A stretch of 32,054 nucleotides of DNA from an uncultured Acidobacteriota bacterium (GTDB taxonomy: Bacteria; Acidobacteriota; Thermoanaerobaculia; UBA5066; DATFVB01): the NCBI GenBank assembly GCA_963813155.1, contig CAWEYG010000020.1, forward strand, positions 1 through 32,054. Reading direction: 5' to 3'. Below the pieces are notes generated by a model that did no database searches, had not been told where the DNA came from, and worked only from the letters and a program-made list of their open reading frames with translations. Position numbers and translations under genes: made by a program. Shown piece after piece: positions 12,230 to 23,076 of this stretch (position 1 is the first letter of the stretch; every line of letters begins with the position of its first letter).

Positions 12230-13153
12230 ATGCTAGCCGATCTTCACCTTCACTTCGAAGGGTCGGTGCCGCGGGAAACGCTCGTCCGCCTCGCGGGGAA
12301 GAACGAGCACGCGTTCGGGGCCGCCGGCGCGTTCGAGACGGCGCTCGCGCGGTCGCGCCAGGCGGGATCGTTTCTGCGGCTCTTCGCCGATTGCTGCCGC
12401 GTCTTCCAGTCGTCCGGGGACTACGCCGAGGCCGCGGGCGCCGTCGGCCGCGAGCTCGCGCGGGGTTTGAAGCACGCGGAAGTCTACGTCTCGCCCGAGA
12501 TCTGGGCGCGGTTCGGCCTCGACCCCTTTTCCGTGCTGGAACGGGTCGACGCCGCGCTCGCGGAGGTGGAAAACGAGACCGGCGCGCGATTGCTCCTCCT
12601 CCTGGATTCGGTGCGCCAATGGGGGAGCGACGCGGCCGAACGGGTGCTCGACGTCTACGAGAAAACGCGGCTCGCTCGCATCGTCGGCTTCGGGATCGGC
12701 GGCGACGAAGCTTCGGTTCCCGCCGGGGAGTTTCGAAAGGTCTACGAGCGCGCCCGCCGGCTCGGGCTCTCGACGGCGATTCACGCGGGCGAGTGGGCGG
12801 GCCCGGAGTCGGTCGAGGAAGCGCTCGACGAGCTTTCTCCGCAGCGGATCGATCACGGGGTGCGCGCCGTGGAAGACGCGCGCCTGCTCGCCCGGCTCGC
12901 ACGCAGCGGAGTGACGCTGTGCGTGGCGCCGAGCTCGAACGTCGCAACGGGAGTCGCCGCGAGCTGGAAACGGCATCCTCTTCCGCGCCTGCTCGACGCG
13001 GGAGTTTCCGTGTGCCTCTCCGCCGACGATCCCTCGATTTTCGGAACGACGACGATCGAGGAGTATCGTCGCGCGCGGACCGAGCTCGGGCTTTCTGCCG
13101 GCGCGATCGAGGCGATGCAGAAGTGCGCGTGGAAGGCGAGGTTCGGGATGTAG
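12230..13153 (+). CDS. add: Adenosine/adenine deaminase family protein
   Basis: DLHLHFEGS, GFGIGGDE, HAGE, RIDHG, PSSN, SADDP; all metal ligands present. Start placed at MLADLHLH. Confidence 0.85.
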   Translation: MLADLHLHFEGSVPRETLVRLAGKNEHAFGAAGAFETALARSRQAGSFLRLFADCCRVFQSSGDYAEAAGAVGRELARGLKHAEVYVSPEIWARFGLDPFSVLERVDAALAEVENETGARLLLLLDSVRQWGSDAAERVLDVYEKTRLARIVGFGIGGDEASVPAGEFRKVYERARRLGLSTAIHAGEWAGPESVEEALDELSPQRIDHGVRAVEDARLLARLARSGVTLCVAPSSNVATGVAASWKRHPLPRLLDAGVSVCLSADDPSIFGTTTIEEYRRARTELGLSAGAIEAMQKCAWKARFGM

Positions 13154-13162
13154 GTTCGCTCA

Positions 13163-13362
13163 TCCCGGGGTTCTCAGGCGACCAACGGCGGCGCTCGGCA
13201 GTTCCTCGCTCGCCGAAAAGAACTCGCAACATCGGGCTTCGCTCCGGCGTCGCCTTTCCGTGGGGGGCTTGAAGGCTTCGAGTTGAAGGCATCCAGCTCA
13301 GACACACTTTTCGGCTTCTCAGAACCGCCTGCGCGCCGCCTCAGGACCCGGACGGCTCCCGG
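13163..13362. repeat. Long imperfect palindrome (REP/MITE-like) between convergent genes
   Basis: GGCGGCGC 13187-13194 pairs with GCGCCGCC 13333-13340; GGCAGTTC 13197-13204 with GAACCGCC 13322-13329; GCCGAAAAG 13212-13220 with CTTTTCGGC 13307-13315. Confidence 0.55.
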
Positions 13363-13384
13363 GCTTCGCTCGCGGGATCTTGCG

Positions 13385-13549
13385 GCGGGTCGCAGGTGCC
13401 TCCCGAGAGGAGCGTATGTTTTTTCGCTGGAGCGGCGCTGCGACTCGCGAGGAGTCAAGTCGCGAAAAAACATGCCCGAGGAGCGCGCACGGACAGGATG
13501 CCACCGCCGGGCGCGCTGCGTCTCCTCGAGGGAGGCACCGAGGACCCGC
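13385..13549 (+). repeat. Structured dispersed repeat, copy 1 (conserved scaffold plus 29-nt variable loop)
   Basis: Reverse-complement match to 18719-18881: 130 of 136 scaffold nt identical by manual alignment. Terminal inverted repeat GCGGGTC...GACCCGC; stems GGTGCCTCCC/GGGAGGCACC and ATGTTTTTTCGC/GCGAAAAAACAT. Confidence 0.9.
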
Positions 13550-13561
13550 CGGGCGAAAACC

Positions 13562-14145
13562 CTACCTCGGCAAAATCCCGTGTTCTTGGAGGCGCCGTTG
13601 CAATTCCTCCACGCGGCTTTTGCGAACGCGGATCCGAAATCGCGCGACGTCGGAATAGCTCTCCTCGACGAGCACGACGTGCGGCGGGTCGACCAGGCCC
13701 TTCACGGCGGAGACCCGCTCGTAGGGAACGCTCAGATCGAGAACGTCGGCATCGAAAACTTCCTCCCGGCCCGCCTGTTCGAGCGCGAGCCGAGCGGCCT
13801 CGCGGTAACAGCGGACGAGACCGGCGGTCCCGAGCTTCGTTCCGCCGAAATACCGAACGACGGCGACGCAGACCTCGTCCAGCCCCGCCGACCGAATCGC
13901 CCCGAGGATCGGCTTGCCCGCCGTTCCCGAAGGCTCGCCGGAGTCCGCCGCCCGGCTCCCGCCGGCGATCGTCCACGCGAAGCAGACGTGGGTGGCGTCG
14001 TGGAACCTCTTTTCGAGCGACGCGACGAATTTCCGGGCCTCCTCTCCGGATCCGCGCGGAACGCGAATCCGAGAAACGTCGAACCCTTCTCGCGGATCTC
14101 GCTCTCGCCCGTCCGGGCGGGAACGAATCGGGAATCGCCGATCAT
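13562..14145 (-). CDS. yigZ: YigZ/IMPACT family protein, one frameshift near 14045
   Basis: ESEIREKGSTFLGFA, then in the shifted frame HDATHVCFAW, DSGEPSGTAGKPIL, VVRYFGGTKLGTAGLVRCY; TAG at 13562-13564. Confidence 0.85.
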
Positions 14146-14188
14146 CGCCGGGAGAAGAGGGGGCGACTCGCGGAGGCGGAAGGCGCGG

Positions 14189-15313
14189 TCATCGAACTTC
14201 GAGCGCGCGTTGATAGACCTGCAGGTATTGCGCGACGGCACGATCCTCGGGGAAGACCTCGACGGCTCGCCGCCGCGCCGAGCGGGAGAATTCCGTTCGC
14301 CGGTCCGGATCGGTCAGGAGCGAGAGGGCGTCCCGGGCCATGCCGTCGACGTCGCCGATCGGGCGAAGAAAACCGGAGCTTCCGCTCTCGACGACCTCCG
14401 GAAGGCCGCCGGCGTCGGTACCGACGACCGGAACGCCGCAGGCCATCGCCTCGAGCGCGGACAGGCCGAACGATTCGCGGTCGGAAGTGAGCAGCAGGAG
14501 GTCGCAGACCGGGAGGAGCGTCTCGACGGCCGTCAGGTTGCCGAGGAAATGGACGAGCTCGCAGATGCCCTTCTCGCGGCAGAGCCTCTCCACGAGAGCG
14601 CGGTCGGGGCCGTCGCCGACGAGAAGTAGCCGCGCGGGGATGTTCTTCTGCACCCGGTCGAAGATCTCGATCACGTCCCCGACGCGCTTGACCGGGCGAA
14701 AGTTCGAGATGTGGACGAGGAGGGCTTCGCCTTTCTTTTTGAAGCCGCGGGCCCAGGTCGACGCGGCGTCGGGCCGGTAGCGCTCGCCGTCCACGAAATT
14801 CGGAACCACGTCGATTGAACGGCGAATTCCGAATTGCGCGATCGTGACGTCTCGCAGGTACCCGGAGACCGCCGTGGCCGCGTCGCTCTTCTCGATCGCA
14901 AAACGGGTGATCGGGAGATAGGACTGGTCCTGCCCGACGAGCGTGATGTCGGTACCGTGCAGCGTCGTGACGACCGCGAGCCGCGAGGGCTCCCGCATCT
15001 GCCGCGCGAGAATCGCGGAGATCGCGTGCGGGAGCGCGTAGTGGACGTGCAAAAGATCGAGGGGCGCGTGCTCGGCGACGTCAGCCATTTTCGTCGCGAG
15101 AGCGAGCGTGTAGGGGGGCGACACGAACAGGGGATAGCTCGGCGCGGAAACCTGGTGGTACGTCACGCCCGGAGTGAAATCGGGCAGCCTCGACGGGCGA
15201 CTGTACGAGAGGATGTGGATCTGGTGTCCCCGCGCGGCGAGCGCGAGGCCGAGCTCCGTCGCGACGACGCCGCTGCCGCCGAAGGTCGGGTAGCACGCGA
15301 TCCCGATTCTCAT
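14189..15313 (-). CDS. bshA: N-acetyl-alpha-D-glucosaminyl L-malate synthase (GT4)
   Basis: MRIGIACYPTFGGSGVVATELG, HVHYALPHA, TTLHGTDITLVG, HISNFRPVKR, ESFGLSALEAM; adjacent to bshB1 and bshC. Confidence 0.93.
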   Translation of the reverse strand: MRIGIACYPTFGGSGVVATELGLALAARGHQIHILSYSRPSRLPDFTPGVTYHQVSAPSYPLFVSPPYTLALATKMADVAEHAPLDLLHVHYALPHAISAILARQMREPSRLAVVTTLHGTDITLVGQDQSYLPITRFAIEKSDAATAVSGYLRDVTIAQFGIRRSIDVVPNFVDGERYRPDAASTWARGFKKKGEALLVHISNFRPVKRVGDVIEIFDRVQKNIPARLLLVGDGPDRALVERLCREKGICELVHFLGNLTAVETLLPVCDLLLLTSDRESFGLSALEAMACGVPVVGTDAGGLPEVVESGSSGFLRPIGDVDGMARDALSLLTDPDRRTEFSRSARRRAVEVFPEDRAVAQYLQVYQRALEVR

Positions 15314-15320
15314 TCCGTCC

Positions 15321-16046
15321 TCATTCGAAACCCGGCTCGTACCCTTCGAAGGCTTCGAGGGGATCTGCGATCCGCGGAGGCCGGCGGGAGATGAACCCTT
15401 CGCCGAACTCGACTCCCGTCATCTGGCCGAAGTGCCTCGCCCTCGCTTCGATTTCCTTCAGGAACTTCTCCGCCGTGAGCATCGTCTCGGGCTCGGAAGA
15501 ACCGGGGTTGTGGAATTGGGAGGCGAACGCGCGCACGGCCTCCATTTTCAACTCGTGCGTTTCGCTGACGTCGACGACGAACGTCGGCTCGTGGTAGTGC
15601 ATCGTCGAGAAGAACAGGACCTGCTGCGGACGGTGGGCCGGATGCGCGGTCTCCCGCTTTCGCAGCCCCGCGTAGAACGCCGCATCGGCGACGAGCCGTC
15701 CGCACCGGGCATGGTCCGGATGGCGGTCTTCGAAGTAGGAGGTCAGGATGATCCGGGGACGAAAGCGCCGGATCGCGTCGATGAGGAGATCCTCCTCCTC
15801 GCGGCCGGTCCGCAGCGCGCCGTCGCCGAAATCGAGGTTCTCCCGGGCGGCGGCGCCGAGAATATCGGCCGCGCGGCGCGCTTCGCGGTCGCGGACCTCC
15901 GCGGTCCCCCGCGTTCCCATCTCTCCGCGCGTCAGATCCAGAATCCCGAAGCTCCTTCCCCGGAGGCGCATCTTGGCGAGCGTTCCGGCGCAGCACATTT
16001 CGACGTCGTCCGGGTGCGCGGCGATCGCCAGGACGTCGACTCTCAT
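15321..16046 (-). CDS. bshB1: Bacillithiol biosynthesis deacetylase (PIG-L family)
   Basis: MRVDVLAIAAHPDDVE, DLTRGEMGTRGT, DRHPDH, AFASQF; the ATG overlaps the bshC stop. Confidence 0.9.
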   Translation of the reverse strand: MRVDVLAIAAHPDDVEMCCAGTLAKMRLRGRSFGILDLTRGEMGTRGTAEVRDREARRAADILGAAARENLDFGDGALRTGREEEDLLIDAIRRFRPRIILTSYFEDRHPDHARCGRLVADAAFYAGLRKRETAHPAHRPQQVLFFSTMHYHEPTFVVDVSETHELKMEAVRAFASQFHNPGSSEPETMLTAEKFLKEIEARARHFGQMTGVEFGEGFISRRPPRIADPLEAFEGYEPGFE

Positions 16047-17528
16047 GAGAAGTCCACGAAAGAGGCGCCGTCGAGACGGCATTCGGCTGCAGCGAGGATC
16101 CCCGGGACGAACGCCTCTCCGAACCGCAGGAGGTAGGTCAGCGGGGAATAGACGCGGTCCGCCGGAGCTCCCCCGGGAGCCAGGGCGTGCTCGATCGCTT
16201 CCAGCCGGCGGTTCTTCTCTTCGTCGCGCCGTTCGGCGGCCTTCTCGACTTTCTCCCGGAGGCGCCCGATCTGGTGCGAGATCTTCTCGGCGGCGCCGGC
16301 GAGCACCGGCGAAAGCGTCGGGTCGACCGAGCCGATGTCGGGCGCCAGGGCCGAGAGCTCGGCGGCGATCCGCGAGTCGAGGTCGGTGAGTCGCCGGGCC
16401 GCGGGAGTCGCTTCTCCCCGGGCCGCTTCGCGCGCCCGGAAGATCTCCGCGTCCGGAATCTCGAGCGCCTCCTGAGCGCGCCGTTCGCGGGCGCCCCGGG
16501 GGAGGAGATGTGGGCGGGGAAGAAGAACGGGCAGGGCGAGGCCGAAAATCGGAAACAGCGGCGCCGATTGCGCGTGGTAAGCGAGCTCGGCGGGGCCGAG
16601 GATCTCGGCCGCGACCGGGAAGAGCCACGATTGGAGGACCGGCCGCAGGAGGGCCGCGGGCGACGGGTCTGGGCCGTCTTTTTCCGCGTGGTCCGCGAGC
16701 TCGCTCGCGGAGTACTTTCGCCCGTCTCCGTGCACGGCAAATCGCGATCCGTCGAAGGAGATCTTCCGGCGGATGCCTCCTTCGATCAGGAAGCAGGGAA
16801 AATCGCGCTCTGCGCGCGCGACCTGCGGGGAGAATCCCGCGGCTCGAAGGCGCGAGTCGGCGGCGTCGAGGGCCGAGACGATTTCCGGGGCGCACCGCAG
16901 GGCGCGGCGGAAGAACTCGAGTTTTCGTTCTCGCCACCGCGCTTCGAGAGGGTCGACCCACTCGAGGTCCGCGTTCGGCAGGAGGCGCTGCATCGTGTCG
17001 CGGAAGGCCTCGCCGAACGTTCTTCCGGGCGACCATAGGCGCTCGAACGTCTCCAGGATCTCCGGGTTCGCCGGGCCCGGAGAGTCCCGCAGGGCCTGGA
17101 AAACGCTCCGGATGTCGGCGGGGATCGGGACCGTCCCGGAGGGGTGGAAATTCTTCTCGGAAGGCTTCTCGAGCCGGAACGTCTCCGGACCCTTTTCTCC
17201 GAGAAGCGTGACCCGGGAGATCTCCTCGAGATCGTGGTCTTCGGTTGCGATCCAAAAAAGGCCGCGGACGCTGCGTTCCGCTCTTCGACACCTGCTCCGC
17301 CGTCCGGCTCGCCGTCGCGGCCTTCGTCAGCGAATAGAGGGGGCCGGTGAAAAGGCTCGCCTGCTGGCCCGCCGCGATCCAGACTTGCCCGCCGCCGGCC
17401 GAGAGCTCCCGGGCGCGGACTTCCACCGCTTGCAGGGCAGGCTCGACGGGCAGGAAATCGCGGGCCTCGCCGCGGACGTATCGAAGGAACAGGGGCGGCA
17501 ACCCGGGCATTCGTTCGAACGGGATCAC
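16043..17528 (-). CDS. bshC: Bacillithiol biosynthesis cysteine-adding enzyme, one frameshift near 17270
   Basis: AGQQASLFTGPLYSLTKA, then in the shifted frame FWIATEDHDLEEI, SPAALLRPVLQ, GPAELAYHAQ, PGGAPADRV. Confidence 0.87.
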
Positions 17529-17561
17529 CGCGTCATTATCTTCGAAAGCCGCCCGCCGAAA

Positions 17562-17589
17562 TGGACTTTCGAGCGCCGCCCCATATAAT
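17562..17589 (+). promoter_or_regulatory. Putative sigma70 promoter of lepB (probably leaderless)
   Basis: TGGACT-16 nt-TATAAT, then an in-frame GTG 7 nt later (17597); no SD. Confidence 0.5.
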
Positions 17590-17596
17590 GCCGCGC

Positions 17597-18303
17597 GTGA
17601 CTGCGGTCCGCCGTAAACAATCTCTCGCCCGCGAATACTACGAAGCCATCCTCGTCGCGGTGATCTTCGCGCTGTTCGTCCGGACGTTCGTTTTTCAGGC
17701 CTTCCAGGTCCCGAGCGGATCGATGGAAAAGACCGTGTTGATCGGCGATCACATGCTCGTCAACAAGTTCATCTACGCCCCCCACGCCGGCGGTCTCCTC
17801 GAGAAGCTCCTTCCCTACCGCGCGCCGAGGCGGGGCGACGTCTTCGTCTTCAAGTTTCCCGACAGCCCGGACCGGGACTTCATCAAACGCCTCGTCGCGC
17901 TTCCCGGCGACCGTGTCGAAGAGCGGGACAAGACCGTTTCCGTCAACGGGGAGCCGTTCTCCGAAAAGCACACGTACCACACCGATCCGCACGTCTGGCC
18001 CTCGGACCGGCGCTTCCCGAGCTCTCGCGCAAGCGGGACAATTTCGGGCCGATCGTGATTCCGCCCGACCGATTCCTGGCGATGGGAGACAACCGGGACA
18101 ATTCCTACGATTCCCGTTTCTGGGGGCCCGTGCCGCGCGACAACATCAAAGGACGGGCTCTTTTGGTATACTGGTCCTACGAGGCCGAGCCGGATTCCGC
18201 GGAGTGGCGCGGTTATGCGGACAAGTTCGGGCGACTCGCCGGCGTCGCGCTCCACTTTTTCACCCGCACCCGGTGGGACCGCACTTTTCGAATGGTGAGG
18301 TAG
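17597..18303 (+). CDS. lepB: Signal peptidase I, one frameshift near 18020 (alternative start ATG 17588)
   Basis: [10 protein letters not shown] (Ser), [21 protein letters not shown] (Lys), [15 protein letters not shown]. Confidence 0.92.
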
Positions 18304-18315
18304 GGGGCCAACACG

Positions 18316-18683
18316 ATGCGAGCACGCAGGTCGATCTCGGGACTGGGCGAGCCGGTTGTTTCATCTGGCTCGTTCTTCTCGGGGCGGTCGTGCTCGTGCT
18401 CTCCAAAGTCGTTCCCGTGAAGATGCGAACGTCACAATTCTTCGACGCGATGGAAGAGCAGGCGCAGTTCGGAAGCATCAAGGGAGACAAGAGCATTCAG
18501 AACGAGCTCTTCCAGAAGGCCCAGGACCTCCAGCTCCCCTTGAAGAAGGAAGACATCGTCGTCCACCGCGACGGCTCGAACGTCTACGTGGAAGCCCATT
18601 ACAAGATCACGATCGAGTTCCCGGGCTACACGTACGTCTGGCAGGAGAACCCGCGAGTCATCCGTCCGCTGTTCGCGGTGTAA
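18316..18683 (+). CDS. DUF4845-like pilin-shaped membrane protein, one frameshift near 18345
   Basis: MRARRSISG then GRAGCFIWLVLLGAVVLVLSKVVP...IEFPGYTY; sits directly after lepB, the usual place for DUF4845 genes. Confidence 0.65.
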
Positions 18684-18718
18684 GGGCTCGCTCAGCCGAC
18701 GTCGCGGCCGAACCCCAC

Positions 18719-18881
18719 GCGGGTCTTCGGCGCCTCCCTCGAGGAGACGCAGCGCGCCCGGCGGTGGCATCTTGTCCGTGCGCGCTCCTCGGGCAAGTTT
18801 TTTCGCGACATCGCACCCACTTGTTCCAGGCCATATCAGCGAAAAAACATACGCTCCTCTCGGGAGGCGCCTGTGACCCGC
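18719..18881 (-). repeat. Structured dispersed repeat, copy 2 (inverted relative to copy 1; 27-nt variable loop)
   Basis: Reverse complement of 13385-13549 except for the loop at 18810-18836 and 6 substitutions, two of which are compensatory. Confidence 0.9.
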
Positions 18882-18998
18882 TCCGGCCCCCGGCCGCTTC
18901 GCCAGCTTCGCTCGTGAGTGGGGGAGCAAGGCGCCGAGTTCCGATTCCCGAAGGAGCAATTGCCACTGGGAGCGCGGCGAGTTGACTCATCGAGCAAT

Positions 18999-19025
18999 AA
19001 AAAACGGGGCTTTCGCCCCGTTTTT
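18999..19025. terminator. Bidirectional rho-independent terminator
   Basis: AAAAAACGGGGC-TTTC-GCCCCGTTTTT between convergent genes. Confidence 0.85.
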
Positions 19026-19051
19026 AGGTAACCGAGACTGGGTTCGGGAGC

Positions 19052-19390
19052 TTACTTCTTGGCGGCGACGGGCTCGGCCTTGGTCGCGTGGACCATTCCG
19101 TCCTTCATCGACACGCCGGAGAGCGTCACTTCCTGGGCCATCATGCCTTCCATCGGCTTCTGGCAGTCGGCGTCGAAATTCATGACCTTCTTGGTGGCGT
19201 TGTCGTAGAAGGCGACTTTCTGGCCTTCTTTGACGCACTTCGCGCCGCACTCTTTGTGGCTGGCGGCAGCGCCCTTGGCGCCGCAGTGGGCTTCGGTGAC
19301 CCATCCGGTCATCGAATCGGCCGCGAGGGCCAGTGAAGCCGTCGCCGCCAGTGCCGCGGCGCCCAGGATTGCAAGGATCGATTTCTTCAT
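19052..19390 (-). CDS. Small secreted Cys/His-containing hypothetical protein
   Basis: 112 aa, signal peptide MKKSILAILGAAALAATASLALA, GAGGAGG SD, motif GWVTEAHCG...HKECGAKCVKEG. Confidence 0.8.
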   Translation of the reverse strand: MKKSILAILGAAALAATASLALAADSMTGWVTEAHCGAKGAAASHKECGAKCVKEGQKVAFYDNATKKVMNFDADCQKPMEGMMAQEVTLSGVSMKDGMVHATKAEPVAAKK

Positions 19391-19460
19391 GGAGTCCTCC
19401 TCTTTATTGATCTGGAAGTAGATCGTTGGAGGCCGATTCTAGTGAAGCCAGGCCCGGGAA

Positions 19461-20732
19461 TCAATTGGGGGAGAAACGCGCCCCGATGTCCGTTCGGTAG
19501 CTCTTGCCATCAAAGGAGATCCGGTCGACGCCGGCGTAGGCCTGGCGGGCGGCGTCGGCGAGCGTTGCGCCCCGCCCGGCGACGACGAGAACGCGTCCCC
19601 CAGCGGTGACGACGCGGCCGTCCCGAAGCGCCGTTCCCGAGTGAAAGACGCTCACCCCTTCTACTTCTTCGGCTTTCTCGATCCCCTCGATCGGGTGCCC
19701 GGTCTGGTAGCTTCCCGGGTACCCCGAGGCGGCGAGGACGACCGCGACGCACGCCTCGGCCTTCCAGGAAAGGTCGATCTCGGAAAGGGTTCCCCGGGCG
19801 CACGCCGCGAGGGCCTCGCCGAGGTCCGAATCGAGCCTGGGAAGGATCGCTTCGGTTTCGGGGTCGCCGAAGCGAGCGTTGAACTCGAGGACTTTCGGGC
19901 CCGACTTTCCGAGGATCAGCCCGGTATAGAGGAGTCCGCGGAACTCCCGCCCTTCCTGGGCCATTCCCGAGAGCGCCGGGTGGACGATGTCCCGCAGGAT
20001 CCCGGCGGCCTGTTCGGCTCCGAGAACGCCGGACGGGGAATGCGCCCCCATTCCGCCGGTGTTCGGGCCGCGATCGCCGTCGAAAACCTTCTTGTAGTCC
20101 TTTGCCGTCGGGAGTGCGAGCGCGACCCTTCCGTCGCACAGGGCGAGAAGCGAGACTTCCTCGCCTTCGAGGAATTCCTCGACCAGGATGCGATCGCCCG
20201 AGGCGCCAAACACCTTCTCCTGGAAGAACAGGTCGAGGGCTCGCTTCGCTTCGTCGGCGTCGGTGACGGTGATGACGCCCTTCCCCGCGGCGAGTCCGTC
20301 GGCCTTGAGCACGGCGGGAAATCCGATCTCGGAGAGCGCCGCCTTCGCCTCGGCGAGCGATGAGGCGACCATCGCGCGAGCCGTCGGGATTCCGTTGCGC
20401 CGGCAAAGCTCCTTGGAGTAGATCTTCGAGGCCTCGACTTCGGTCGCGAGGCGCGTCGGCCCGAAGATGAGGAGGCCCCGTTTCTGGAACTCGTCGACGA
20501 CGCCGAGCGAGAGGGGCAGCTCGGGGCCGATCACGGTGAGATCGATGTTGACCCGCGCCGCGAAGTCCGCGAGCTCGACGACCGACGCCGGCGAGATGGG
20601 GACCGCGTCGGCGATCTTCGAGATCCCCGCGTTTCCGGGGGCGGCGAAGAGTTCCGTGACGCTCCGGCTCGCCCGGAGGGCCGCCGCGAGCGCGTGCTCG
20701 CGTCCACCGGAGCCGACCAACAGAACTTTCAC
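19461..20732 (-). CDS. purD: Phosphoribosylamine-glycine ligase
   Basis: VGSGGREHALA, KADGLAAGKGV, GPNTGGMG, EFNARFGDPE, GGRVL. Confidence 0.96.
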   Translation of the reverse strand: MKVLLVGSGGREHALAAALRASRSVTELFAAPGNAGISKIADAVPISPASVVELADFAARVNIDLTVIGPELPLSLGVVDEFQKRGLLIFGPTRLATEVEASKIYSKELCRRNGIPTARAMVASSLAEAKAALSEIGFPAVLKADGLAAGKGVITVTDADEAKRALDLFFQEKVFGASGDRILVEEFLEGEEVSLLALCDGRVALALPTAKDYKKVFDGDRGPNTGGMGAHSPSGVLGAEQAAGILRDIVHPALSGMAQEGREFRGLLYTGLILGKSGPKVLEFNARFGDPETEAILPRLDSDLGEALAACARGTLSEIDLSWKAEACVAVVLAASGYPGSYQTGHPIEGIEKAEEVEGVSVFHSGTALRDGRVVTAGGRVLVVAGRGATLADAARQAYAGVDRISFDGKSYRTDIGARFSPN

Positions 20733-22908: not shown

Positions 22909-22986
22909 GGCGGGCGTAGCTCAGCTGGTTAGAGTGCCAGATTGTGGATCTGGATGTCGTGGGTTCAAATCCCATCGCTCGCCCCA
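22909..22986 (+). tRNA. tRNA-His (GTG) with encoded G-1 and CCA
   Basis: Acceptor stem GCGGGCG/CGCTCGC, anticodon arm CCAGA-TTGTGGA-TCTGG, T-loop GTTCAAATC, C discriminator. Confidence 0.96.
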
Positions 22987-22999
22987 AATTTCGCTCTTT

Positions 23000-23076
<77 letters not shown>

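Follow-up and report, generated by a model that had tools for sequence, protein, structure and literature searches.

Small structured repeats are common in bacteria, and for most of the families neither the mover nor the function is known. The ERIC or IRU repeat (127 bp) is described as small, non-coding, multi-copy and intergenic, with a predicted long stem-loop transcript and orientation-dependent effects on co-transcribed mRNA; it has TA ends and a target-site duplication, and its mover is given as unknown or uncertain in the sections of PMC2229807 that deal with it. The pneumococcal BOX repeat, built as boxA-boxB(n)-boxC, is reported as enriched between convergent genes, with a structured predicted transcript and a slow rate of novel insertion (PMC3049150). 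According to the corresponding sections of PMC2229807, YPAL or RU-2 of Yersinia (168 bp) is not A+T-rich, has no TA ends, inserts at stretches of dyad symmetry or next to them, has sites that are filled in one sister species and empty in another, and makes target-site duplications of 3-26 bp. The CIR repeats of Caulobacter and Brucella are treated in the same source as having a predicted RNA with more than one arm and a conserved motif in the terminal loop, the two independent arms being joined by a linker and a GANTC methylation motif being present (PMC2229807).

The window analysed here is a stretch of 32,054 nt from an uncultured Acidobacteriota bacterium of the Thermoanaerobaculia (contig CAWEYG010000020.1 of assembly GCA_963813155.1). 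Its own genome (G000; 3.8 Mb, 23 contigs, 66% G+C) was compared with two sister genomes of the same genus (G001 and G002) and with genomes of a sister genus (among them G003 and G004). Two copies of a 165-nt element are present in the window, copy A at 13385-13549 on the plus strand and copy B (core of 163 nt) at 18719-18881 on the minus strand; both belong to the subfamily that we call type A, and they score 185.6 and 186.4 bits respectively with a covariance model built from 27 copies, 9 of them from G002. The 45-nt left arm differs between A and B at 2 positions and the 91-nt right arm at 4, and 2 of these 6 arm differences form a compensatory double change (GGTGCC...GGCACC against GGCGCC...GGCGCC). 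The loops, of 29 and 27 nt by the borders first drawn, do not align with each other. The positions, the six arm differences, the double change and the unlike loops had been reported in the original prediction, made from the letters of the window, and were observed again here. Its placement of both copies between convergent genes also agrees with the gene neighbours that we find: an adenosine deaminase gene (plus strand, end at 13153) and a minus-strand gene upstream of bshA for copy A, and a signal peptidase gene (plus strand) and a small minus-strand gene with its end at 19052 for copy B. That no cognate enzyme lies in the window was confirmed by Pfam on the 36 window ORFs (19 + 17), which yielded housekeeping families only and no transposase, recombinase or nuclease. 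A scan for promoters and terminators at both window copies gave no signal.

Some other features of the window may be noted. A different repeat of about 190 nt (13186-13377), with 7 matches in G000 and more than 12 in G001, lies immediately upstream of copy A; a composite of the two was considered and rejected, since this repeat adjoins only few copies of the element. The minus-strand block 14189-17528, with a bshA-like GT4 glycosyltransferase, BshC domains and a PIG-L deacetylase, resembles a gene cluster for bacillithiol synthesis, here in a MAG of the Acidobacteriota. Both the bshC-like gene and the signal peptidase gene (15321-17528 and 17561-18303) are split over two frames, and contigs of other runs have single-base insertions at 14051, 18006, 18312 and 18338; these insertions and split frames are likely to reflect single-base assembly errors in the window.

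The fold of the element is a three-way junction made of a long outer stem, a hairpin 1 that carries the variable loop and a hairpin 2. In copy A the outer stem pairs 13385-13415 with 13518-13549, with pairs that change on both sides among copies, and it is interrupted by a 2x2 purine internal loop (GA/GA) formed by G21 A22 of the 5′ strand and the invariant G144 A145 of the 3′ strand. Hairpin 1 has an A/U-rich stem, supported by covariation and by the alignment fold, in which the 5′ strand TGTTTTTTCGC (13417-13427) pairs with the 3′ strand GCGAAAAAACAT (13462-13473); on comparison of the copies and from the loop statistics, its apical loop (13428-13461 in copy A, 18808-18838 in copy B) is held in length, at about 31 nt, and free in sequence. 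A junction strand GCCCGAGG (13474-13481) follows, in which GCCGAG is common to both subfamilies in the alignment of types A and B. Hairpin 2 (13482-13517), which covaries as well, has a G/C stem (AGCGCGC/GCGCGCT) and a partly conserved loop (13489-13510) with the motif GAT(G/T)CCAC. In the fold of the long form, the pairing arms of copy A extend to about 13363-13582, where a 5′ arm GCTTCGCTCGCGGGATCTTGCG (13363-13384), also seen in the flank table, lengthens the hairpin by pairing with the 3′ arm (13550-13582). More than the 165 nt is mobile: the full unit of copy B, arms included (GAGCGAAG ... GGGGCC, core, GGGGTT ... GAGCGAG; 18688-18913 on the minus strand, 226 nt), matches at 88% identity a G001 copy in a non-orthologous place (C17:37395-37618), and that site is empty in G000. 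Many type A copies have arms of the form GAGCGAAG, small hairpin, GGGGCY, core, GGGGCY, small hairpin, GAGCGAG, and in some copies the 5′ flank adds one more REP-like hairpin. Full copies measure about 165 nt, or 220-275 nt with the arms, at a G+C content of 61-69%.

The plus strand of copy A folds at -100 kcal/mol as against -71 +/- 4.5 for 200 shuffles (z -6.4), and the minus strand at -89 (z -5.5). In an alignment of 34 copies, drawn from G000 and G001 only and biased towards structure by having been fitted to the covariance model, 96.5% of the cells are in standard pairs and 22 of the 41 pairs have changes on both sides; none of 500 shuffles reached any of the five measures, and on sliding the partners by 1-3 columns pairing stood at 42-58%. 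An independent MAFFT/RNAalifold alignment gives double changes at 9 of the 41 pairs. The constant scaffold with a covarying stem, which had been claimed from two copies, is therefore seen throughout the family and the fold is under selection. It is selected on one strand: G.U or U.G pairs outnumber A.C or C.A pairs by 78 to 12, and by 33 to 12 (p 0.0025) if the two majority-wobble pairs are left out, a U.G pair beside the junction is nearly fixed, and the plus strand is the more stable one in 39 of the 43 cores (9 copies from G002). Three features, namely the GA loop, GCCGAG at the junction and GAT(G/T)CCAC in the loop of hairpin 2, stay constant across subfamilies with differing stems, and type B maintains its outer stem through compensatory changes while the sequence of that stem varies between copies. 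The GGGCUC blocks of the arms pair with one another (GGGCUC x GGGCUC) by way of two G.U pairs each. These self-pairing blocks, the many G.U pairs and the GA loops make RNA the somewhat favoured candidate for the selected form in the modelled fold. As the copies lie in mixed orientation, the selected form may instead be a single-stranded DNA transposition intermediate. A likeness in short words to the hammerhead or other ribozymes and to domain V of group II introns found no support in Rfam, and these candidates were rejected.

BLAST found 9 full copies of the element in G000. On collecting all genomic copies with the covariance model, as the original prediction had proposed, sense-strand copies at 60 bits or more numbered 13 in G000, 21 in G001 and 27 in G002. 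The same model found no copy in 4 sister-genus genomes and only two weak partial matches (33 and 36 bits) in 144 further genomes of the order; in the class sample (151 genomes, G000 included), the sole out-of-genus match among 148 was the same 36-bit one. A search of about 186,000 species genomes for an exact pattern of the scaffold found 33 loci, every one of them on one of two MAG records; 14 metagenome contigs have the pattern as well, and no viral contig does. Searched as a whole with its loop, the element had zero matches in phage, plasmid and viral-contig collections. The expectation that it belongs to no named family held against Rfam 15, which at the gathering threshold returned two tRNAs only for the whole window (two neighbouring tRNA genes lie on the plus strand at 22910-22983 and 23000-23073), listed for 13200-13750, with E-values up to 10 allowed, only two matches far below threshold (16 and 13 bits, where the cut-offs are near 50) and gave no match at five other element loci. 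In the portions available to us of the literature on repeats of Acidobacteria and Thermoanaerobaculia and on multi-copy covarying intergenic RNAs, no account of the element was found.

Two subfamilies were distinguished by their stems. In type A the hairpin 1 stem is TTTTTTCGC/GCGAAAAAA and the hairpin 2 stem AGCGCGC/GCGCGCT, and its sublineages GTATG, GTAAG and GTAGA are common to several species; type B has the stems CTTTTCGAGC/GCGAGAAAAG and GCGGCGGCC/GGCCGCTGC. Several sublineages (A1, A2, A3 and B) occur across species, and a third variant is present in metagenomes. One metagenome contig (L140) has a partial copy made of hairpin 2 and the 3′ strand (1446-1574), 170 nt upstream of a full copy of the third variant (1744-1906) on the same strand. 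Two other genera of the order have weak matches that may be relatives: a single-copy match of 114 nt and 35.6 bits in G035 (L055, 1501-1614), which shares ACTTGCCCGAGGAG and the outer stem, and a 61-nt hairpin in G061 (L056, 1501-1561) that corresponds to nothing but the outer stem. This stem may be part of an older hairpin repeat family of wider range; a permissive regular expression for short relatives made of the outer stem only returned mostly noise. Another repeat, some 300 nt long, lies in G000 at C7:10192-10509 and in at least 10 further positions on C2, C8, C9 and C13; at C7:10509 and C2:881999 it abuts an element reduced to its last 50 nt. About 8.5 kb of contig C7 duplicates the end of C2 at 93% identity, probably because sequence of a second strain was binned with this MAG, whose contamination is 3.8%.

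The variable loop was parsed in 39 of the 43 copies, in which it measures 29-33 nt with 55% G+C, as against 66% for the genome. Mean pairwise identity between loops is 45.5% in G000 and 42% in G001, compared with 31.6 +/- 9.7% for shuffled loops, and the highest pairwise values are 74% and 70% respectively. Within G000 the scaffold is 91.5% and the inner core 93.5% identical at this loop identity of 45.5%, and three orthologous pairs, two of them with a copy from G002, have loop identities of 66, 50 and 39% against 80-93% for the scaffold halves. The loops are thus related by descent, and drift without exchange takes the place of the swappable loop that had been proposed; of the claimed variable insert of similar length, the tight length remains and the origin by swapping does not. 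Loops matched their own flanks over 7.09 nt and the flanks of other copies over 7.08 nt (32 loops), and their own genome at 27.1 bits as against 26.3 bits for shuffled loops. Of the signs named in the original prediction by which the idea of a guide would fail, the absence of targets was seen in our searches, and a widely varying loop length was not. On account of the descent of the loops and the absence of flank or genome matches above the controls, we read the loop as a spacer which, to judge from the copies compared, is constrained in length and free in sequence, neither swapped nor a guide. As far as sequence comparison can tell, it drifts at a roughly neutral rate with its length held at 29-33 nt, while at resident loci the scaffold is maintained. 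Scaffold identity is still 92-94% between copies with nearly saturated loops, which points either to selection at resident loci or to gene conversion that spares the loop; selection appears the more likely of the two, and gene conversion between copies could be a partial source of the identity. A small peptide was rejected, as loop length does not go in multiples of three and variants have lost the two ATGs. A constant scaffold with a variable loop is by itself not a sign of a guide RNA.

We compared insertion sites between the sister species. Of the 21 copies in G001, 13 fall at G000 sites where the flanks lie 0-80 nt apart with the element absent between them, 2 are common to G000 (one of these in opposite orientation relative to the same flanking genes), and the other 6 were assigned to neither group. 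One G001 site (L077) is empty in both G000 and G002, which reveals that the copy was gained in the G001 line. Copy A is absent from the orthologous spacer in G001 and G002, where other repeats are present. In G000, nuoA and nuoB are separated by a type B copy in antisense orientation; the two genes abut or overlap, with the element absent, in G002 and in three sister-genus genomes, and on this comparison one copy is seen to have split the nuoA-nuoB junction. No target-site duplication was found at five clean pairs of filled and empty sites (L077 and L085-L088) or at the nuoA-nuoB insertion. The insertions replace 0-39 nt of the target and add few ragged extra bases, which at L077 repeat the adjoining flank imperfectly and in inverted form (13 of 17). 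At the orthologous site flanked by purA and a histidine ammonia-lyase-type gene, a type B element of G000 (L067, C3:22673-22830) and one of G001 (L083, C4:22708-22873) are in opposite orientations, either by an in-place inversion across the element's own arms or by two independent insertions. Contigs of low depth from four DNA runs, examined over 12500-19600, break inside the repeats and none spans an empty site. The comparison of empty sites that the original prediction had suggested thus bore out its dispersed, mobile, non-coding element, and the aligned flanks indicate that copies arise at new sites between sister species without target-site duplication.

The element is best read as a new family of small structured repeat, and the idea of a programmable guide is not supported. 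We consider it probable, with some reserve, that this family, restricted to one genus of uncultured soil Acidobacteria, is made up of non-coding structured intergenic repeats that are mobile or were so until recently, of the general kind of ERIC, BOX, YPAL and REPIN. Against this explanation it must be said that a mobilising enzyme was not found among the families searched in the element-bearing genomes. In such a repeat the branched tip (the hairpin 2 loop, the junction GCCGAG and the GA loop) would offer the recognition surface for a putative trans-acting protein, the loop would act as a spacer that need only be unpaired and about 31 nt long, and the strand-specific constraint would apply to a single-stranded form. 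If that form is RNA, the element would, after co-transcription, provide a stable RNA structure at the 3′ side or between genes, as has been proposed for ERIC and BOX. A more specific proposal, which we put forward tentatively, is that the three-way junction is a selected strand-specific ligand, most likely RNA, for a putative protein. The latter may be a host factor that uses the ~13-27 copies or a mobilising enzyme of a new kind, distinct from HUH, TnpB and the DDE transposases that make duplications, which would read structure and not the sequence of the ends, and the upkeep of the type B outer stem by compensation despite differences in sequence fits structure-reading.

It is also possible, though doubtful, that the element is a functional RNA first and that mobility is only its means of spread. 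The three-way junction would then be a cis-acting mRNA module or a protein-bound small RNA, with the scaffold kept for a host function such as transcript stabilisation, processing or sequestration of a protein. The excess of G.U over A.C pairs with the nearly fixed U.G beside the junction, the arms that need G.U pairs, the three motifs kept across subfamilies whose stems differ and the scaffold identity of 92-94% at near-saturated loops are all consistent with this possibility. So is a preference for the 3′ side of genes, for the copies are mostly downstream of genes, among neighbours that are unrelated housekeeping genes. By a crude GC3-based gene caller made for this analysis, 16 of 31 copies had an upstream gene on their own strand and 9 had one on the other strand, with the remaining 6 uncalled, and the downstream gene was convergent in 19 (of 27 called), in the same direction in 8 and not called in 4. 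Yet the same counts also speak against a functional RNA, because 9 of the 25 copies with a called upstream gene are antisense to it. This mixed orientation, along with the antisense nuo copy and the inverted orthologous site, is a poor fit to an RNA that works only within the transcript of its neighbour. The scan at the window copies revealed no promoter or terminator signal, and restriction to one genus would be unusual for a host RNA with a core function.

We then looked for candidate movers. Y1/HUH transposases (PF01797) were found in 0 of the 3 element-bearing genomes (G000, G001 and G002), and once each in G003 and G004, that is in 2 of 2 sister-genus genomes without the element; TnpB (PF07282) and DDE_Tnp_1 were found in 0 of 5 genomes, all of these being MAGs of 78-99% completeness in which a missing enzyme is not proof of absence. 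A reverse transcriptase was present in G001 only. IS110 has a single copy in G000 (C3:143380), where the covariance model gave no match, and it is also present in the sister genus that lacks the element. None of the 13 G000 copies has a gene for a DEDD recombinase or another effector beside it. The search for linked Y1, IS110 or TnpB genes, which had been advised at the outset, therefore found none, and the IS110 seen elsewhere is uncorrelated with the element. An IS30-like insertion sequence (1068 bp, with an rve domain in a 350-aa frame) has 7 copies in G000 that are >99% identical (C1:496344, C1:492805, C2:661208, C3:888921, C4:79364, C5:214656 and C8:20781), one of them with a TGA in frame; it adjoins REP-like hairpins (TCCCGCG...CGCGGGA, then ATCGCTC), and its ends TTCACAAACGAAGTGCAACA are unlike those of the 165-nt element, which pair with each other. 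In a search for an autonomous parent bounded by CTTCGCTC ... GAGCGAAG, such pairs were not enriched at 0.6-4 kb.

These results bear on the mover named in the original prediction, an HUH enzyme, and make it unlikely that the element is a REPIN or an IS200/IS605-type single-stranded DNA element moved by a Y1 transposase of the RAYT/TnpA kind. Such an enzyme would account for the strand-specific fold, for insertions without target-site duplication and for a multi-copy, intergenic element of hairpin architecture. PF01797, however, was found in sister-genus genomes that lack the element and in none of those that have it, TnpB was not found, the tip is asymmetric and no REP doublet, and neighbouring copies 5 and 10 kb apart are in opposite orientation, which leaves no replication-strand bias. 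Very improbable is the guide-bearing non-coding RNA, in which the ~31-nt loop would programme a nuclease or recombinase like a bridge RNA or omega RNA, for although a constant scaffold with a variable segment held at 29-33 nt has that appearance, the loops show descent with drift and no replacement, match neither their own flanks nor the genome above controls and lie in an element absent as a whole from phages, plasmids and viral contigs, with no effector gene beside any of 13 copies.

As a structured intergenic repeat the element has clean handles for study, which are a branched covarying fold, a clear functional strand, a loop that may serve as an internal neutral clock beside the constrained scaffold, and dated insertions that left the target site unduplicated, including one within an essential operon. 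The searches for the usual candidate enzymes in these genomes found none. The family could therefore serve to distinguish repeats that are maintained through host use of their RNA fold from repeats that are maintained by an enzyme copying them.

On comparing the element with the described systems, several known kinds can be set apart. MITEs are distinguished from it by the lack of a target-site duplication and of any match between its ends and those of the IS30-like insertion sequence of the same host, derivatives of IS200/IS605 (PATE, omega RNA) by the counts for PF01797 (0/3) and PF07282 (0/5), and the IS110 bridge RNA by the fact that 0 of 13 copies lie beside a DEDD recombinase and the loops are not matched to their own flanks. 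With REPINs it shares hairpin-forming, strand-aware, long-lived repeat populations bound to a lineage, and a loop between the arms that is less constrained. A REPIN, however, has two short inverted REPs around a short spacer, whereas here two different hairpins stand at a tip that is asymmetric and branched with a conserved loop of its own, and the RAYT/Y1 gene was not found (PF01797 in 0 of 3). The CIR repeats resemble it in their multi-armed predicted fold and conserved loop motif; its three-way junction is closed, unlike their linked arms, and has no GANTC motif. YPAL is of similar size, resembles the element in not being A+T-rich, in lacking TA ends and in inserting at or next to dyad symmetry, and has filled and empty sites as well, but with target-site duplications that the 165-nt element lacks. 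The BOX repeat, so far as its published description extends, likewise has a constant frame around a middle module that varies without disturbing the fold. The middle of BOX varies by the copy number of the module and that of the 165-nt element by point substitution at fixed length, and the two differ in host phylum and have no likeness in sequence. Like ERIC, the element is small, non-coding, multi-copy and intergenic with a long stem-loop; unlike ERIC, it has no target-site duplication, a G+C content of 61-69%, a three-way-junction tip and no sequence likeness (no Rfam match). Four features set it apart from ERIC, BOX and YPAL: the selected branched tip, the lack of target-site duplication, the high G+C content and the usual enzymes not being found. 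With the same three it shares the properties of orphan structured intergenic repeats, a functional class and not a homology family, in being under ~250 nt, non-coding, multi-copy, intergenic, strongly folding and lineage-restricted, with filled and empty sites.
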